Part shown: one piece after another, positions 3,612-11,675 of the stretch
How positions within the stretch are numbered: the stretch's first letter is position 1
Layout of the letters: every line of letters starts with the position of its first letter
Virus record (IMG/VR): IMGVR_UViG_2690316184_000007
DNA: 16,468 nt
DNA from: a virus
Taxonomy: Duplodnaviria > Heunggongvirae > Uroviricota > Caudoviricetes
Reading direction: 5' to 3' (one strand)
Position numbers and translations under genes: made by a program
Notes under the pieces: model-generated
What the model was told of the DNA's origin: nothing
The model's input: the letters and a program-made list of their open reading frames with translations, nothing else
Databases searched by the model: none

Positions 3612-4712
3612 TCATTCCATTTCGAAATCATCAATCCTCACTTCAAGCTCCAGACTGGTCGTAAAACCGTTATCCGGGCTGACGGTATGCGTCAGAGTCG
3701 TAATGGTCCATTCCGCATCATCTATCGGCTGTTTAAAGCCACTGACTTTCACTGGCATTTCCGTGTAGAGATCTGCCCGCCCTTCCGCCAGTTGTAGCGA
3801 GAATGATGCAACGCCGCGTTGCAGGCGTTCCCACTGCATTTTCGCTGCCCGTTCGGCGTTGCTCCGGTTGGCATAAGTGCGATTAAGTACCAGCACGTTT
3901 TCATCCGTACCCACCAGGTAATCGCCCTGCTTCGCTTCCGGCTCTTTCTTCTGCTTCTTAGTCCTGCGCTTACGCTTCACCGTGGTGCTTTCTTTCTTCG
4001 CGGGTTCGCGGGTATGCAACCAACTGGCAATTACGCCCGTGTAGGCTCCGCGATCTGCCAGGGTAAAGCGGTGACTGTCGCCGTCCTTACGTGTGATTGA
4101 GATCACCGGCAGTGGTTTACCGCTGGCGCTTTTGCCCTGTCCCTGCCGGATGAATAACAGATTGCCATTTTTCACCGACGCGATGGCACCGTACTGGCGC
4201 GCCAGCCGCATCAGAAAACTGCCGTCACTCTCATTAGTCTGGTCTATATGCTCCACGGGCTTATCCGACAGGTCTTTACCCAGTGCCATCTTCAGCTTAT
4301 GACGCGCGGCTATTTCCTTCACCAGTTCCCCGACAGTGGTCTTGTGCCACGATTTTTCACGGCGGGTATTCAGCGTTTCCCTAAAATCAGCACTTCGCGC
4401 CCGGATAGTCAGGCGATCCGGTGCGCCGGTGTGTTCAATCTCGTCCACCGTGAATGCCCCTTTCGGGAAAAGCGGCTGCCCCTTCCAGCCCAGCGCCAGC
4501 GTGATGACCGCACCACGGCGCGGCAGCACGATTTTTCCGTCGGCGTCGTCCAGCTCCAGATCAATCTGGTCTGCTTCAAAGCCCCGATTGTCCGTCAACG
4601 TCAGACTCATCAGGCGGTTATCCAGCACAGTGGTGATATCCTTCCCCTCAATACTGATGCTGAATGCGGGAGTTTTGTTGCCTTTGTTAAGCAGTTCAGA
4701 GCTGAAATTCAC
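3612..4712 (-). CDS. D: P2 gpD-like tail protein (late control gene D), 366 aa
   Basis: 366-aa ORF immediately downstream of U with an ATGA stop/start overlap (4709-4712) and upstream of ogr; translation recognised as the gpD family from memory. Confidence 0.85.
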   Translation of the reverse strand: MNFSSELLNKGNKTPAFSISIEGKDITTVLDNRLMSLTLTDNRGFEADQIDLELDDADGKIVLPRRGAVITLALGWKGQPLFPKGAFTVDEIEHTGAPDRLTIRARSADFRETLNTRREKSWHKTTVGELVKEIAARHKLKMALGKDLSDKPVEHIDQTNESDGSFLMRLARQYGAIASVKNGNLLFIRQGQGKSASGKPLPVISITRKDGDSHRFTLADRGAYTGVIASWLHTREPAKKESTTVKRKRRTKKQKKEPEAKQGDYLVGTDENVLVLNRTYANRSNAERAAKMQWERLQRGVASFSLQLAEGRADLYTEMPVKVSGFKQPIDDAEWTITTLTHTVSPDNGFTTSLELEVRIDDFEME

Positions 4713-5194
4713 GACAGCAGCCCTCCCACCGTTTTACTGATATCGCTTAAGGCAGACGTTGCCGTATCCTGCAAATTATTCAGCTGCGCACTGAGATCAC
4801 CGAACATATCGGACAGGGATTCATCCACCCGTTTGAGCGACAGGGTAAACTCAATCCGGCGCGGCATACCATCGCGGAAAAACTCCGTTTTAGTCTGATT
4901 CAGTCCCTCAATCACATACATGCCGTAAATCGTGCCGCTGCCTTCAATCAGAGGCCATGCTTTCCCCTGTTCTGCCATCTGCTCCAGTGCCAGCAACGAC
5001 AGCCTGCCGCCTGTTATCTCCGGCATAAGAACACCGGAAAGCGTCAGCATGTCGTTGTCCGGTCCCAGAAACTGCGTGGACGGACGACGATTTACCCGGC
5101 TGTTAGCCGCATGTCGCCAGCTGCGCTGATACTGCAGTTCCTGATACGGCACGGTGCGCAGCATAAACACGTACAATCCCAGCACCATCATCAT
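4709..5194 (-). CDS. U: P2 gpU-like tail protein, 161 aa
   Basis: 161-aa ORF between the T remnant and D with ATGA overlaps at both ends; size and position match P2 gpU. Confidence 0.8.
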   Translation of the reverse strand: MMMVLGLYVFMLRTVPYQELQYQRSWRHAANSRVNRRPSTQFLGPDNDMLTLSGVLMPEITGGRLSLLALEQMAEQGKAWPLIEGSGTIYGMYVIEGLNQTKTEFFRDGMPRRIEFTLSLKRVDESLSDMFGDLSAQLNNLQDTATSALSDISKTVGGLLS

Positions 5195-5646
5195 GCGTCG
5201 TATCCCCCCTGATCGCTGTAGTTACTCCTGGCTTTTGCCTTCAGCCTGCGTTCACGTTCATCAAGCTGGCGGGCCACCTCCCGCGCAATATCCTGCGCAC
5301 TTTGTCCTGGCTGCGTCTGAATAATGATCTGCGTCGGTGCCTCAATCCGTTGAGCGGGCGGCACAGTGGCTGCACGACTCACCATTGCTTCACCGCCTTT
5401 CGTGGGAAGTGCCAAAGGATGCAACGGTGGAAGCTCTGCTGGCGCGGCAGCAACACCCATCATTCCGGCAACAACGGCAGCCAGTGCAGCTGTATTTCTC
5501 CGGCTGGTCACATTTGCCGGGCCGTTAACAATTTCCGGCCCGTTTTCACCGACGATGCCAAACTGCCCGCGCGGGATATAGCCGCCGCTGTCATACATCC
5601 CCGCAAAGCCATATCCCCATGCCCGGTTATCTTTCTGCCATCCCAT
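5191..5646 (-). pseudogene. T: 3' remnant of the tail tape-measure gene T (C-terminal ~150 codons only)
   Basis: Reading frame overlaps the U start by ATGA as T does in P2, but an in-frame stop lies at 5656-5658 and the upstream DNA encodes a portal fragment on the opposite strand. Gly/Ala-rich C-terminal sequence is typical of tape-measure ends. Confidence 0.65.
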
Positions 5647-6122
5647 CCGCTTTGCTCAACGAGTCCGCCACGCTGTTCCGCCGCAAGTATTACATCAACG
5701 GCAGCCATGCAGGCTTCATCATGTATATGACCGATGCCGCGCAGAATCAGGAGGATGTGAACAATCTCCGCAATGCGATGAAAAGCGCCAAAGGCCCTGG
5801 CAACTTCCGCAACCTGTTTATGTACTCGCCTAACGGCAAAAAGGACGGGATTCAGATCATCCCGTTGTCAGAAGTCGCGGCGAAGGATGAGTTTCTGAAT
5901 ATCAAAAATGTCAGCCGCGATGACATGATGGCAGCGCATCGTGTGCCGCCGCAAATGATGGGGATTATGCCGAATAATGTTGGGGGGTTTGGGGATGTGG
6001 AGAAGGCAAGTAATGTATTTGTTCGTAACGAACTTATCCCCTTACAAAAACGTATCGAACAATTAAATCAATGGATAGGAAACACAATTATTAATTTTTT
6101 ACCATATTCTCTCCAAAGTTAA
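5619..6122 (+). pseudogene. Q: 3' fragment of the portal gene Q (C-terminal ~150 codons)
   Basis: Translation ...RVPPQMMGIMPNNVGGFGDVEKASNVFVRNELIPLQKRIEQLN... is recognised as the C-terminal region of P2-type portal proteins. The ORF is about half the full portal length and has no plausible upstream continuation. Confidence 0.65.
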
Positions 6123-6134
6123 AAAATAGCATAT

Positions 6135-6157
6135 GGGTGCATAATGTTTATGCACCC
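6135..6157. terminator. Bidirectional hairpin terminator between convergent Q' and the TIR gene
   Basis: Perfect 9-bp inverted repeat GGGTGCATA-atgtt-TATGCACCC in the 40-bp gap between the two convergent stops; T-rich tract on the minus-strand side (atatgctatttttt). Confidence 0.5.
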
Positions 6158-6162
6158 TCTTA

Positions 6163-6780
6163 TTACCAGTTAAAAATTGATGAGCTGCGAATTGCAGGAA
6201 CATCCGATGGATTTCGTTTAGCAGCTGGTTCCATCAACTTACGCTTATTAAATGCCTGATCAATATAATACTCAGGATTTTTAATAAAGACAGAGTATTT
6301 TACCAATGCACAATATACGTCAGAGTCATTATAATGGGGAACTGTTTTTTCATAAACATGATTCTTTCTAACCAGATAAGGCAAATAATAATCATATCCC
6401 AAACCTGGCGTTCTTAGACTTATAGAACATCCGCATGATGGATCTGCACATACTGCAGGAGTAAACACACTGTCGTAAATTTCATCTCTGATAACACCAA
6501 TTAGACCATTATAGTTTTCTCCCCAGAGTGATGCTTGAATTTCAGTGTTTACAAATGGACGATTTTTGGTTTCCGTTCCAATAAGAACGACAGTAACCGT
6601 TGAGTCTTTTAAAAAATCCTCACGAATAGTCCTCATTATTGTTTCATCAGTGTTAGTTGTACTAATGTCACCATCACTTACCGACTTATCAATAAACGAT
6701 TCTCCTCCGAATAAATCAATAATCTCATCTTTGAGATCTTGTTCGTTAGCATGATGATAACTAAGAAACGTCTTATGCAT
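6163..6780 (-). CDS. TIR-like domain protein, ThsB-like (DUF1863 / PF08937-type), 205 aa
   Basis: N-terminus MHKTFLSYHH... and the core STVTVVLIGTETKNRPFVNTEIQAS resemble the B. cereus ThsB pattern as I recall it (VFFSFHY ... VTCVLIGSQTFNRRWVRYEI), including a Glu at the expected catalytic position (E80). Start ATG overlaps the upstream gene's stop (TAATG). Strongly AT-rich relative to flanking prophage DNA. Confidence 0.7.
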   Translation of the reverse strand: MHKTFLSYHHANEQDLKDEIIDLFGGESFIDKSVSDGDISTTNTDETIMRTIREDFLKDSTVTVVLIGTETKNRPFVNTEIQASLWGENYNGLIGVIRDEIYDSVFTPAVCADPSCGCSISLRTPGLGYDYYLPYLVRKNHVYEKTVPHYNDSDVYCALVKYSVFIKNPEYYIDQAFNKRKLMEPAAKRNPSDVPAIRSSSIFNW

Positions 6781-7511
6781 TATTCACTCCATTTATCAAC
6801 ATTTATATCAAACTCTTTGACTACCTTATCATTGAAGAAATCGTTTACTTCTTTAAAACCTTCCAATACTTGACTAAAATGATAATAATGCTTTTGTATA
6901 ATACTTATAGGGGTTAAATGATACGGCAATGATATAAATTCGCCGTTAGGGTCTCTATCCTTTGTGGTCACTTTATCATGATCTGAAACATATTTATGCC
7001 ATCTCCGATAATTATTTTGATGTTTTGTTAAAAAAGAGTTTAAGGTTTTCAAAATTTCATTTGAAAGTAAATACAGTTTTTTATCTCTTTTTTTCTTCAC
7101 ATCTAGTAATTTCATTTCATCTCTAATGAATTTATAGCACTCATAATATGAGTTTAAAACTTCTTCAATTGAGTCATAATTCGGATCAAATTTAAATAAT
7201 GTTCGCTTCGTATCCAGATAATTTTTTACGCTCTTTTTAAAAAGAAGATCAGACTTATTTAGTAAAATATTAATACCACCAAAACTAAGTTGCTCCAATC
7301 TCAATGAATATCTTTGATGAAATGCACCGACCAGCAAGATATAAGCAACTAAAAATAGTATTAATACTGATAAAAAAGCACGAATTATGCTTACATTTGA
7401 CATGAAATTAACTATAAACCACCATTTTTCAAACGGTGAAAACGGAATGCTCCCCATGATAATAAGTAGAAGAACAAAGATACAACTCCATAAAACCCAC
7501 AATCTGTACAT
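6780..7511 (-). CDS. Membrane protein with two N-terminal transmembrane helices and a ~150-aa Lys/Tyr/Asn-rich C-terminal domain of unknown function; first gene of the TIR operon
   Basis: ORF-track frame extends to a TTG at 7556; I prefer the ATG at 7509-7511 (MYRLWVLWSCIFVLLLIIMGSI...), preceded by AAAAAGGA. Hydrophobic helices at about residues 4-22 and 50-75 of the ATG-start protein. The C-terminal domain has no Gly-rich Macro motif and no SIR2-like motif I can see. Confidence 0.6.
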   Translation of the reverse strand: MYRLWVLWSCIFVLLLIIMGSIPFSPFEKWWFIVNFMSNVSIIRAFLSVLILFLVAYILLVGAFHQRYSLRLEQLSFGGINILLNKSDLLFKKSVKNYLDTKRTLFKFDPNYDSIEEVLNSYYECYKFIRDEMKLLDVKKKRDKKLYLLSNEILKTLNSFLTKHQNNYRRWHKYVSDHDKVTTKDRDPNGEFISLPYHLTPISIIQKHYYHFSQVLEGFKEVNDFFNDKVVKEFDINVDKWSE

Positions 7512-7663
7512 AAGAAAGATCCTTTTTCTTTTTATAATACTGCAACTACACCTCAAGTCAAAACCCTCTTCTGATATTACCCTCTACTACAGTAACCCAT
7601 CACATGACCTCCGACTTATCAGAAGACTAGCCAAACTTTCTCAATCAAATCAGGTTGCGCGCG

Positions 7664-7682
7664 CTCGTATCCCCGCCACGCC
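7664..7682 (-). other. cos-like site (P2/186-type cohesive-end sequence)
   Basis: Minus strand reads GGCGTGGCGGGGATACGAG. The first 13 nt match the 19-nt cohesive end of phage 186 as I recall it (GGCGTGGCGGGGAAAGCAT; P2 GGCGAGGCGGGGAAAGCAC). Recalled from memory, not checked. Confidence 0.4.
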
Positions 7683-7731
7683 TGCCCGCTTTATGTAGTG
7701 GTTTTCATGCACCTGCATGATCTACGCAAAA

Positions 7732-7751
7732 GCCCGCCAGTTCTGGCGGGC
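7732..7751 (-). terminator. Rho-independent terminator ending the minus-strand small-ORF/DinI-like transcript
   Basis: GC-rich hairpin GCCCGCCAG / CTGGCGGGC with TTTTG immediately following on the minus strand, ~135 bp downstream of the DinI-like stop. Confidence 0.5.
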
Positions 7752-7886
7752 CTTAGCAAAAACGATCCTCAAACGATCATGCGATCTCATGCGGCATAGA
7801 CATGCACTACAGAGCTAACGCCTCGCAAGGGCTCGTTGTTCAACCTTGCTGACGCCAGAAACAAGTTCAGACGCCAGCAACGTTTC

Positions 7887-8472: not shown

Positions 8473-10845
8473 TTAATACAGGTTCCGCCATTTATCATCT
8501 TCCTTCAGACGCTGGTTCCGATAGAAGATACGCAGGCCTGCTCCTGATGGAATACTGCCACCGCGAAGGAGCAAATCGACTTCTTTCTCGCTGCCATCAA
8601 ATCCTCTGGACTTCAGTTCATAGACGAGCTGCTGATGCTGATGATCTGTAATTCGCTGTTTGTAGTCTTTACACCTTTTCGGTTTAACCAGGCGCAACCT
8701 TACTGCCAGCTCCCGGCGATCTTTTTTGCTCATACTGTGCAGGTAATCGTGCAACTCCTTGTCATCCATGCGGGTAATGTCCGTTCTGGTGTCCCCATCA
8801 GCTGATTTATCTTTCTCCTGTTGGTTCAAATTTTCAGCAAGGGGACAGTTATTGCCACGAGTCCAAGGGGCGCAAGCGCCCTGGTCGGCTGCCGCCTCCT
8901 GAACATCAACGGCCTTACGAACCATTTTCCACTTCACGGCATGAGTGCAGATCTTGCCCTCTGCAATAGGTGACCAGATGCCATAAATACGAATGCCGTG
9001 ATCGCCATAGGCGGTCGGCTCTTCGTTGATTTCATAAGCGGTTCTGATGAGGTGATATTTGCGGGGAACCAGTACGCCGCCCTGCTTCATGATGTAGGTG
9101 GCAAAACAACCAGCATCAGCAGCAGCCAGGATGGCATCAAGGCGCGGGTTATCCAGTACCCGCGCACCTGCTTTTTTGTCCCCCTGTTGCCTTGCCGCCT
9201 GACCAGCCAGCAATCGCAGTTCACGGTAAGCCTGACGCCCCGGAATGCCAAAGAAGCGGAATTGCTGAACACGATGCAGAGACGCCCAGGCATTAACGTA
9301 TTCAGCATTATCACGCAGGGATTTCCCCGTTTCCTTGCTGATCTCGCCAGCCAGACCACGCCCGTCAATGTTCTTACTGATGTATTTCGCGATGTAGCTT
9401 GTTGGCGTACCTTTGCGCGGGTTAATCAACTCAGACTTAAAGCGCGGCCCAGTGTTATTGCCCAGTTCCTCGCGGTCTTCACGGATGGCAAACTTACGCA
9501 GTAATGCAGTGATGGCGCGGCGGTCTTTTTTGCGCATAAAACACAACAGGTGCCAGTGAACTGTACCGTCATGATGCGGCTCAGCCACCCGCACGCCATA
9601 CCACCGCAATCCGGCTTTGTGCATCGCCTTACGAAATGCAGCAAACATGCCGACCAGATAATCACTGCTTTGTCTTACCGTCGCATTTGTCCAAGTTGGG
9701 TTGGGCCTGCCATTATTTAGCGTGGAATGGAAACGTGACGGACAGGTGATGGTGTAGAAAACGGCGCAGTCACCGCGCATTTCCGCGATAAGCTCCAGGC
9801 CTTTAACACAGGCCATCATCTCATTGCGGCGATGCGCAGGGTTGCTGCTGCTGGCGTTTACCACATCCTCCATGTCCAGCGTGTCGCCGTCTTCGTTCAC
9901 CAGTTCATGAGAACGAAAAAACTCCAGCGACTTACGGCGCTGCTCACGTTTATGCATCACGGCTTCATAGCTGACATAGGGAGATGCTTTTTTGCTGACC
10001 AGGCAGACAGCACGCAACTGCTCTTCCCGCCATTCGCAACGCATCTTCCATAATTTCCGGTACCACCAGTCAGCGCACAACATACGCGCCAGCGAACCCG
10101 GAATGAGTTCATAGGGCACGGGTTTACGGCGGTTTCTTTTCCGGCGGAGTTGCTCAAACGCAGGCGGGATGACATCCAGATGCAGGGTTTCCGCTGCCAC
10201 CTTTTCCCATGTCTTGCGGATTTCTTCTGGCTTAACGTCATCGGTGACATACAAATCGCCACAAGCTGCATCAAGGCACATGCTCATATGCGCAGCTACC
10301 AGGGTGGACAGGCGTTTCACCTGATCCTGACTCATTTCAGGCAGGATCAGCAGGCCGTCCAGCCCTTCATGGCTTGCCATAAAGCGAAAAGAAGTGGATA
10401 GCTGACAGTCGCGTACATGCTCCAGCCGTTCCAGACATGGCTTAATCGTCTCACGCAAATAGCGGGAATAAGCCTTTGGCCTGCCCAGGCTGCTGAAGTA
10501 TTCAATACGTTGCATCAGCGGCTTGCTGATATGGGAAGGCTGGGCATTGACGTCCGCCAGAATGACCATATCTGGATTAAAACGCTGCTGCTCATGCGCC
10601 AGCTTTGCCCGACTAATGAGCTTATCCTGCTCCATTTCGCGCTGGACAGGATCACGGGATTCATTAAAGAAATAACGCTCCCAGACCTGATCACTCAGTG
10701 CCTCGCGGCGCAGCTGTTCCTGCTCGTTATCGGCAGCGTACAGAGCGATCAGGTTTGAAAGCGCAGAAACTGAAGATTGCTCTTCTGTCTCTACGTAAGG
10801 ATTGATTGCTTTTTTCTCAGCATTCCAGGAATAGCTGTAGTTCAT
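8473..10845 (-). CDS. A: P2 gpA-type rolling-circle replication initiator (HUH endonuclease), ~790 aa
   Basis: Contains the HUH motif ([11 protein letters not shown]) and the two-tyrosine active-site motif ([13 protein letters not shown]). Start preferred at the ATG 10843-10845 (MNYSYSWN...), which overlaps the upstream stop as TAATG; the ORF track extends to 10896. Confidence 0.85.
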
Positions 10846-11675
10846 TACGCAATCTCCAGTTCGAGCTGTGAAGGCTGCAAACCATTCGACAGCCAATCAG
10901 AAACTGAAGGTGGGCGAACAGCTTCAATTGCACCTTTTAAAATTGCGCAACGGTTTTTCAGAATGACAGCTTTCAGCTCCTTTTCCGTCAGATTGCGCGA
11001 ATACTCAGCCTCCTGAATAGCCCGCGTCAGCTCAGGATATTTGCTATTAAATTTGGGGACATTGCAGGCAAGATTTGTACTGTCGGCAGTCGCCAGTGGG
11101 TAATTTCCCAACACACGACCGTCAAGCATGCGCAAACCATGAACAGCTGTTTTGAAATTGTGTCGGCAATAAATTGCTTCAAAAGCGTCCTGCATACGAC
11201 GATGCCAGTGCGCAGTTCTGATAGCCGCATATTCACCAGACGATCCAAAGCAGACACGAGGCCATTCACGACATAGCTCGATAAGCCGATCGATTGACTC
11301 GTGCAGATGCCAGACGGGAGTTGCCTTCCCGTAGAACATTTTCGGAACTTCGTTTATCAGGGCATCATTGTCACGTTCACCTCCGTCCACAACATCAGGA
11401 ATGACAAAAAAAGCGACCTTAGGATGGTGGTAATAGTTCAGGAGCCATTTATAAAAATCACTCCAGTTAATTTTTAGCCCACGCACCCATGCAGAAAATG
11501 CGCCGTTATCAATGCCGACGACCTGAGCGTGCTGAATGGACGCCGCAATCTGATCTGGTCGTACATAGGAGACGAAAGCGCCAGCTCCGCTCACCGCAAT
11601 ACGATGAACGTCGCCAGCACTTCCCCAGACAGGCGTCCCATGGAAATGATGAATTCCGTGGTGCATTTCTTTCAC
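10845..11675 (-). CDS. Conserved prophage early-operon protein of unknown function, 273-276 aa, His-rich N-terminus
   Basis: Long ORF between dam and A, coupled to both (GTG overlapping the dam stop, or ATG at 11664-11666; TAATG with A). No motif I can assign with confidence. Confidence 0.55.

Follow-up and report, generated by a model that had tools for sequence, protein, structure and literature searches.

The window, by which we mean the whole 16,468-nucleotide stretch of DNA analyzed here (IMG/VR record IMGVR_UViG_2690316184_000007), is a defective P2-like prophage in Escherichia coli, adjoining ybjL. Its genes run in the order ogr, D, U, truncated tape-measure gene, truncated portal gene, TIR gene (thsB), thsG, DinI, a small ORF, and gpA, and past gpA come an unnamed ORF, Dam, and further genes as far as cI and the integrase. 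The features of the thsG-thsB unit and its borders are listed below by window position.

6135 to 6157, no strand assigned: terminator-like hairpin with a 10-bp stem, flanked by the 3′ ends of thsB and of the truncated portal gene (terminator scan)
6163 to 6780, minus strand: thsB, a ThsB-type TIR protein of 205 aa, WP_000549632 (PF08937, E 1e-14; PADLOC ThsB models)
6780 to 7511, minus strand: thsG, type VI Thoeris effector of 243 aa, WP_000286099 (ORF, RefSeq, homologues, TIR neighbor)
6783 to 7262, minus strand: helical ("DUF6650"-type) domain of ThsG, residues 84-243 (AlphaFold2, invariant columns, hhalign)
7320 to 7394, minus strand: ThsG transmembrane (TM) helix 2, residues ~40-64 (Kyte-Doolittle up to 2.84; AlphaFold2 helix 40-64)
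7446 to 7505, minus strand: ThsG TM helix 1, residues ~3-22 (Kyte-Doolittle windows above 2.0; AlphaFold2 helix 2-21)
7520 to 7524, minus strand: AAGGA, Shine-Dalgarno-like, 8 nt 5′ of ATG 7511 (read from the sequence)
7534 to 7561, minus strand: promoter-like TTGACT-16 nt-TATTAT directly upstream of thsG (10/12 match to a sigma-70-like consensus only)
7727 to 7752, minus strand: G+C-rich hairpin plus TTTT, located after the DinI gene, GCCCGCCAGAACTGGCGGGCTTTTG (read from the sequence)

The minus-strand ORF beside the TIR gene ends with TAA at 6782-6780 and extends to 7556 if it starts at a TTG or to 7511 if it starts at an ATG. It is a genuine gene, as the first-pass annotation had assumed, with homologues in 39 clusters (identity 37 to 100%, lengths mostly 238 to 243 aa) and 214 representatives found at E ≤ 0.001 by a profile search. 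The ambiguity that the annotation had seen at the 5′ end can be settled, since several observations favor ATG 7511. RefSeq entry WP_000286099 gives 243 aa, matching this start; the equivalent Met begins the homologues, and in-frame sequence 5′ of it is either not conserved or interrupted by stops; and the AAGGA lies 8 nt before the ATG. The promoter-like site, the best of the region, overlaps TTG 7556, which would therefore fall outside the transcript, as far as a consensus match can indicate. On these grounds the TTG start was rejected. An antisense ORF of 103 aa (7387-7698, plus strand), which overlaps the 5′ end of thsG and the promoter region, looks like a by-product of AT-rich sequence.

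The thsB start codon and the thsG stop codon have one base in common (6780, in TAATG), and the hairpin at 7727-7752 sets the two-gene unit apart from the upstream prophage genes; this hairpin is absent from the terminator scan list because it has a T-run of just 4 bases. The candidate catalytic Glu of ThsB is E80, judging from an alignment with relatives at their W-E-I motif. Past the TIR core, ThsB carries an extension of ~100 aa (residues ~100-205; 6163-6480, minus strand) in which Cys residues cluster (VCADPSCGCSISL). The homologue from E. coli S1 keeps this cluster (VCTDFRCNCGVSL), and the ThsB of the Gammaproteobacteria scaffold discussed below lacks it. The extension could serve to bind metal or to sense phage.

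Hydropathy and an AlphaFold2 model agree on the two N-terminal TM helices that the annotation had described in ThsG. The model, a monomer built on 22 homologues, has a mean pLDDT of 83, and from residue 84 on most values exceed 90. It shows the two N-terminal helices, a low-confidence linker (residues 65-83), and, over residues 84-241, a helical bundle that includes a single beta-hairpin. The C-terminal domain had been predicted to be helical and ~150 aa long; its helical character is borne out by the model, and its size is nearer 160 to 175 aa. The C-terminal part is composed of K at 13%, L at 12%, D at 9%, N at 7.5%, and Y at 6%. Because an R/K-rich sequence follows TM helix 2, the positive-inside rule suggests an N-in/C-in topology and a cytoplasmic location of the helical domain. 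Conserved motifs are DTKRT (100-104), S121/Y122, R130, LNxFLTxHQNNYRRW (157-171), IQxxYY (205-210), and KW (240-241). Residues 84-243 are the presumed domain for signal binding and oligomerization, and the conserved K102/R103, R130, Q165, and R169/R170/W171 are candidate pocket residues. Five distant relatives of 290 to 312 aa (P0136, P0170, P0174, P0175, and P0179) carry the ThsG-like domain at the C terminus behind ~150 non-hydrophobic, uncharacterized N-terminal residues, and may be effector fusions.

Standard domain libraries do not recognize this C-terminal domain, as had been anticipated: scans of ThsG and its relatives against Pfam, PADLOC 2.0, NCBIfam, and PHROG returned only sub-threshold noise (MRJP, KinB_sensor). 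No SIR2 or SLOG domain was detected by Pfam or PADLOC, no Macro domain by Pfam or fold, and no SLATT homology, in keeping with the view that the protein is neither a SIR2-SLOG nor a TM-Macro effector. The PDB held no specific fold match for the helical domain, and a profile search of PDB sequences was empty; no ThsG structure has been solved to date, judging from this search. With hmmscan at an E-value cutoff of 10, PF20355 (DUF6650) matched neither the window ThsG nor 21 relatives. The same model also misses two ThsGs from Bacillus scaffolds, so that its negative result for the window protein does not discriminate, and the label "DUF6650" given to these proteins must derive from some method of greater sensitivity. 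No Pfam match is on record for the Gammaproteobacteria-scaffold ThsG, and one relative (P0026) carries a precomputed PF20355 match.

The locus is one that has been described. Window positions 6100-7700 are 100% identical over 1,601 bp to NZ_CP007442.1 (E. coli ACN001). The same full identity over this 1.6-kb segment is seen in ACN002, in APEC O78, and in further genomes, of which many are of poultry origin; 42 of 5,426 complete E. coli genomes (about 0.8%) hold at least 80% of the segment. Yirmiya et al. (bioRxiv 10.64898/2025.12.03.692087, December 2025) define type VI Thoeris as a TIR protein with ThsG, a protein annotated DUF6650 (PF20355) that sometimes has N-terminal TM helices. Their Table S2 lists, for E. 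coli ACN001, TIR 2638504641 and, as the neighboring IMG gene, effector 2638504642 ("DUF6650 and TM") as type VI, tested in E. coli MG1655 with the outcome "Defense Yes" against T7; the system, cloned under its native promoter, is one of five type VI systems that they validated for defense. ThsB residues 1-173 are identical to all 173 residues shown for IMG 2638504641 in their Table S1, and therefore ORF 6780-7511 is the effector of the ACN001 system. This minus-strand ORF is thus ThsG of a type VI Thoeris system whose locus is not new, and the proposal that it fits no known Thoeris type does not hold. The pair was also catalogued as cargo of the P2 hotspot by Rousset et al. 2022 (PMC9122126), where it is not among the systems assayed. 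Their Table S5 gives the hotspot content WP_001154433+WP_001217579+WP_000286099+WP_000549632, in which WP_001217579 is DinI; the two accessions searched in that table occur 16 times each. A full-text literature search for the WP accessions gave no match, and they were found only in this supplementary table.

The window ThsG was compared with ThsGs from scaffolds for which 2′cADPR-induced arrest was shown or defense was validated in the same preprint (bioRxiv 10.64898/2025.12.03.692087). With hhalign, family profile A2 matched the ThsG of a Bacillus scaffold (L008:2718-3239, Ga0102589) at 96.7% (E 3.8e-10), and profile A1 matched that of the Gammaproteobacteria scaffold (L060:3561-4196, Ga0209396) at 95.8% (E 7.9e-9). 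BLASTP gave 25% identity to the latter (E 1e-10), and identity to the Bacillus-scaffold ThsGs is about 15%. In a small set of 366 ORFs, hmmsearch with A2 returned L008 (4e-13) and L011 (Ga0268252; 5e-12), and the same profile found a ThsG-like ORF in 25 of the 48 retrieved loci that surround Bacillus-type type VI TIR genes. The core positions common to the window and scaffold ThsGs are T101-K/R, S121, R130, an L-x-x-L-T-K-W/H/Y stretch, and W171. Judged by sequence, then, the window ThsG is homologous to the ThsGs of experimentally validated type VI systems. Measured against the annotation's own condition for refutation, a confident match to a known signal-binding domain, the novelty that it had claimed for the protein fails.

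As in the window, the gene immediately downstream of thsG is a ThsB_TIR (PF08937) gene in each of five relatives whose contigs were inspected, from Serratia, Priestia, Klebsiella, and two metagenomes; some of these lie outside prophages. The clade of ACN001 differs from the Gammaproteobacteria-scaffold system in having LNxFLT where the scaffold ThsG has LRPxLT, in a beta-hairpin insert (near residues 178-200) and the motifs FGGxN and QNNYRRW, all particular to the clade, and in gene order, the effector coming first in the ACN001 clade and the opposite order being found in the scaffold system. Three Firmicute type VI loci (L002 1953-3781, L003 2908-4700, and L006 1433-3510) have two different TIR genes for each TM-bearing ThsG, one of the Bacillus type and one PF08937 ThsB, in an order that varies by locus. 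A ThsG homologue of 42% identity, annotated "hypothetical protein," is encoded on 140 plasmid records (e.g., NZ_CP038792.1, 58601-59284) from Klebsiella, E. coli, Enterobacter, Citrobacter, and others, of which 60 are predicted to be conjugative, and a 36-kb E. coli record holds a 64%-identical thsG copy without an annotated feature.

The GC content of the thsG-thsB unit is 27 to 35%, versus about 50 to 58% in the flanks. The unit sits in the position of the gpA-to-portal variable hotspot of intact P2-like phages, and in the Serratia and JGI metagenomic loci the pair lies between gpA and the intact portal gene of such phages. It thus represents low-GC cargo that a P2-like prophage, now defective, carries in its gpA-to-portal hotspot; besides this Thoeris cargo, the prophage has kept gpA, the lysogeny genes, and the integrase. 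Of the tape-measure gene a C-terminal part remains (5191-5646, minus strand), and it meets, with a slight overlap, a likewise C-terminal remnant of the portal gene (5619-6122, plus strand). RefSeq treats both as pseudogenes (defective region within window 3612-6122); this junction implies that roughly all of the capsid, lysis, and tail genes have been deleted as a block. The ORF between the Dam methylase gene and gpA (10845-11675, minus strand, 276 aa) matches PHROG 887, "queuine tRNA-ribosyltransferase," at E 2e-96 and has no Pfam or NCBIfam match. Serratia P2-like relatives carry a PAPS-reductase-like gene or a C5 DNA methylase in the same slot, which may be a second variable site for DNA-modification or anti-restriction genes.

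We explain the locus as a two-gene type VI Thoeris system, carried as P2-hotspot cargo, in which ThsG is an effector gated by a TIR product and arrests growth at the membrane; for this explanation as a whole we estimate a probability of roughly 0.85. On infection, ThsB would make a cyclic ADPR signal, which the cytoplasmic helical domain of ThsG would bind through a basic pocket between ring protomers. Binding would then lead the two N-terminal TM helices to compromise the inner membrane, and growth would stop before the phage completes its cycle. The preprint (bioRxiv 10.64898/2025.12.03.692087) reports for other type VI members that the TIR expressed alone makes 2′cADPR only after infection and that external 2′cADPR, not 3′cADPR or cADPR, causes ThsG-dependent growth arrest; type VI defense is abolished by the sponges Tad1 and MoTad2 and by the hydrolase XopQ. 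The annotation's suggestion of a ligand-gated effector working with the ThsB TIR was of the right kind and close to the reading accepted here; its other suggestion, a new sensor, is disfavored, as the TIR alone yields the signal and externally added 2′cADPR triggers the effector-dependent arrest.

AlphaFold3 predicts ThsG to form a homo-hexameric tube with basic inter-protomer pockets, and the forms with TM helices may breach the membrane (bioRxiv 10.64898/2025.12.03.692087). According to the same source, ThsGs without TM helices from two Bacillus scaffolds also defend, one of them with 2′cADPR-dependent arrest, and how these forms exert toxicity is unclear to its authors. For this reason, membrane damage is no more than a plausible killing step for ThsG. 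Toxicity might instead reside in the conserved cytoplasmic ring or tube, for example via a cellular target, with the TM helices only anchoring or modulating it and no pore or disruption involved. The TM-less scaffold proteins fit that arrangement, as do the 20 relatives without a hydrophobic segment among 111 representatives of 160 aa or longer (some relatives have other N-terminal regions) and the conserved core that forms with and without TM helices have in common. Against it, two or three hydrophobic segments are kept in all 29 full-length members of the clade of the window ThsG, action on the membrane is reported or presumed for the TM effectors of CBASS and of Thoeris types II and VII, and the XopQ paper describes ThsG as membrane-spanning. 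We regard toxicity of the ring itself as possible but rather unlikely, and ThsG as probably arresting growth at the membrane.

The signal itself may vary within type VI. As given in the text of the preprint, three of the five type VI TIRs yielded detectable 2′cADPR; for the other two, which that text does not name, the authors allow for another signal or for weak production below the detection limit (bioRxiv 10.64898/2025.12.03.692087). The enterobacterial clade of ACN001 and S1 could thus be the same kind of system using a TIR product other than 2′cADPR, with a ThsG pocket tuned to that product. Such a reading would suit the fact that an effector response to 2′cADPR was shown for two effectors, from the Gammaproteobacteria and Bacillus scaffolds only. 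It would also suit the TIRs of ACN001 and S1, which are close relatives, both have the Cys-containing C-terminal extension that the scaffold TIR is without, and are 43% identical to the scaffold TIR over the first ~100 residues only; and the window ThsG, for its part, lacks the R of the LRP motif, at the 25% identity given above. However, weak production would also account for the two unnamed TIRs, the ACN001 TIR falls in the same cluster (2741407742) as the 2′cADPR-linked scaffold TIR, and the core T-K/R, S121, R130, and W171 are kept in the window ThsG. We find it doubtful that this clade relies on a different signal, and equally doubtful that it is one of the two type VI variants without detectable 2′cADPR. 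If it were, the ACN001/S1 clade would signal via another TIR product, which its ThsG would sense with a divergent pocket (LNxFLT...QNNYRRW instead of LRPxLT).

Two further explanations would remove thsG from type VI altogether, and we rejected both as highly improbable. Membership in the AC1 "2TM + 1TM + TIR" system of Rousset et al. 2022 (PMC9122126), which resembles the window unit in occupying the same P2 hotspot, in pairing a 2-TM protein with an adjoining TIR-like protein, and in its proposed nucleotide messenger, is contradicted by the three genes of AC1 and their unrelated products (WP_112924689+WP_000207842+WP_089587035), by its TIR, whose best match is PF10137 rather than the PF08937 of the window TIR, by the lack of a 1-TM ORF beside the window pair, and by a tblastn search of ThsG against 50,697 phage records that gave no match. 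An unrelated prophage membrane protein, holin-like or for superinfection exclusion, standing beside the TIR gene by chance would agree with a small 2-TM prophage protein that matches no library domain, but not with a ThsB pairing kept across Enterobacteria, Bacillota, and metagenomes and also outside prophages, with the overlap of the two coding sequences, with the homology to ThsGs of validated systems, or with the listing of the two-gene operon as a defending Thoeris system.

Read as a type VI effector, ThsG can be placed among the named Thoeris systems. Within type VI, the window locus is the ACN001 member itself, with identical locus DNA and TIR sequence and the effector listed as "DUF6650 and TM." The type II effector (TM plus Macro), which binds His-ADPR and forms a membrane pore, resembles ThsG in its N-terminal TM region and C-terminal cytoplasmic ligand-sensing domain, and the two systems have a ThsB-type TIR partner and abortive-infection logic in common; they differ in the Macro domain, and His-ADPR was not detectable for the TIRs of types V to XI (bioRxiv 10.64898/2025.12.03.692087). 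Type VII ThsH (SLATT) and the TM effectors of CBASS are membrane-spanning and, like ThsG, are thought to oligomerize on binding a nucleotide in basic inter-protomer pockets, but ThsH has the SLATT domain and responds to canonical cADPR. Type I ThsA is activated by a cyclic ADPR isomer made by ThsB, as proposed for ThsG, but is a soluble NADase built of SIR2 and SLOG, in contrast to the helical bundle of ThsG.

Type VI Thoeris is the system showing that the plant immune signal 2′cADPR is also in bacterial use. For its effector the gap in standard annotation is real: its RefSeq name is "hypothetical," and ThsG goes unrecognized by Pfam, PADLOC 2.0, NCBIfam, and PHROGs alike. The practical value of the present assignment accordingly lies in annotation, with about 0.8% of complete E. 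coli genomes and 140 plasmid records carrying an unlabeled thsG or a relative of it.
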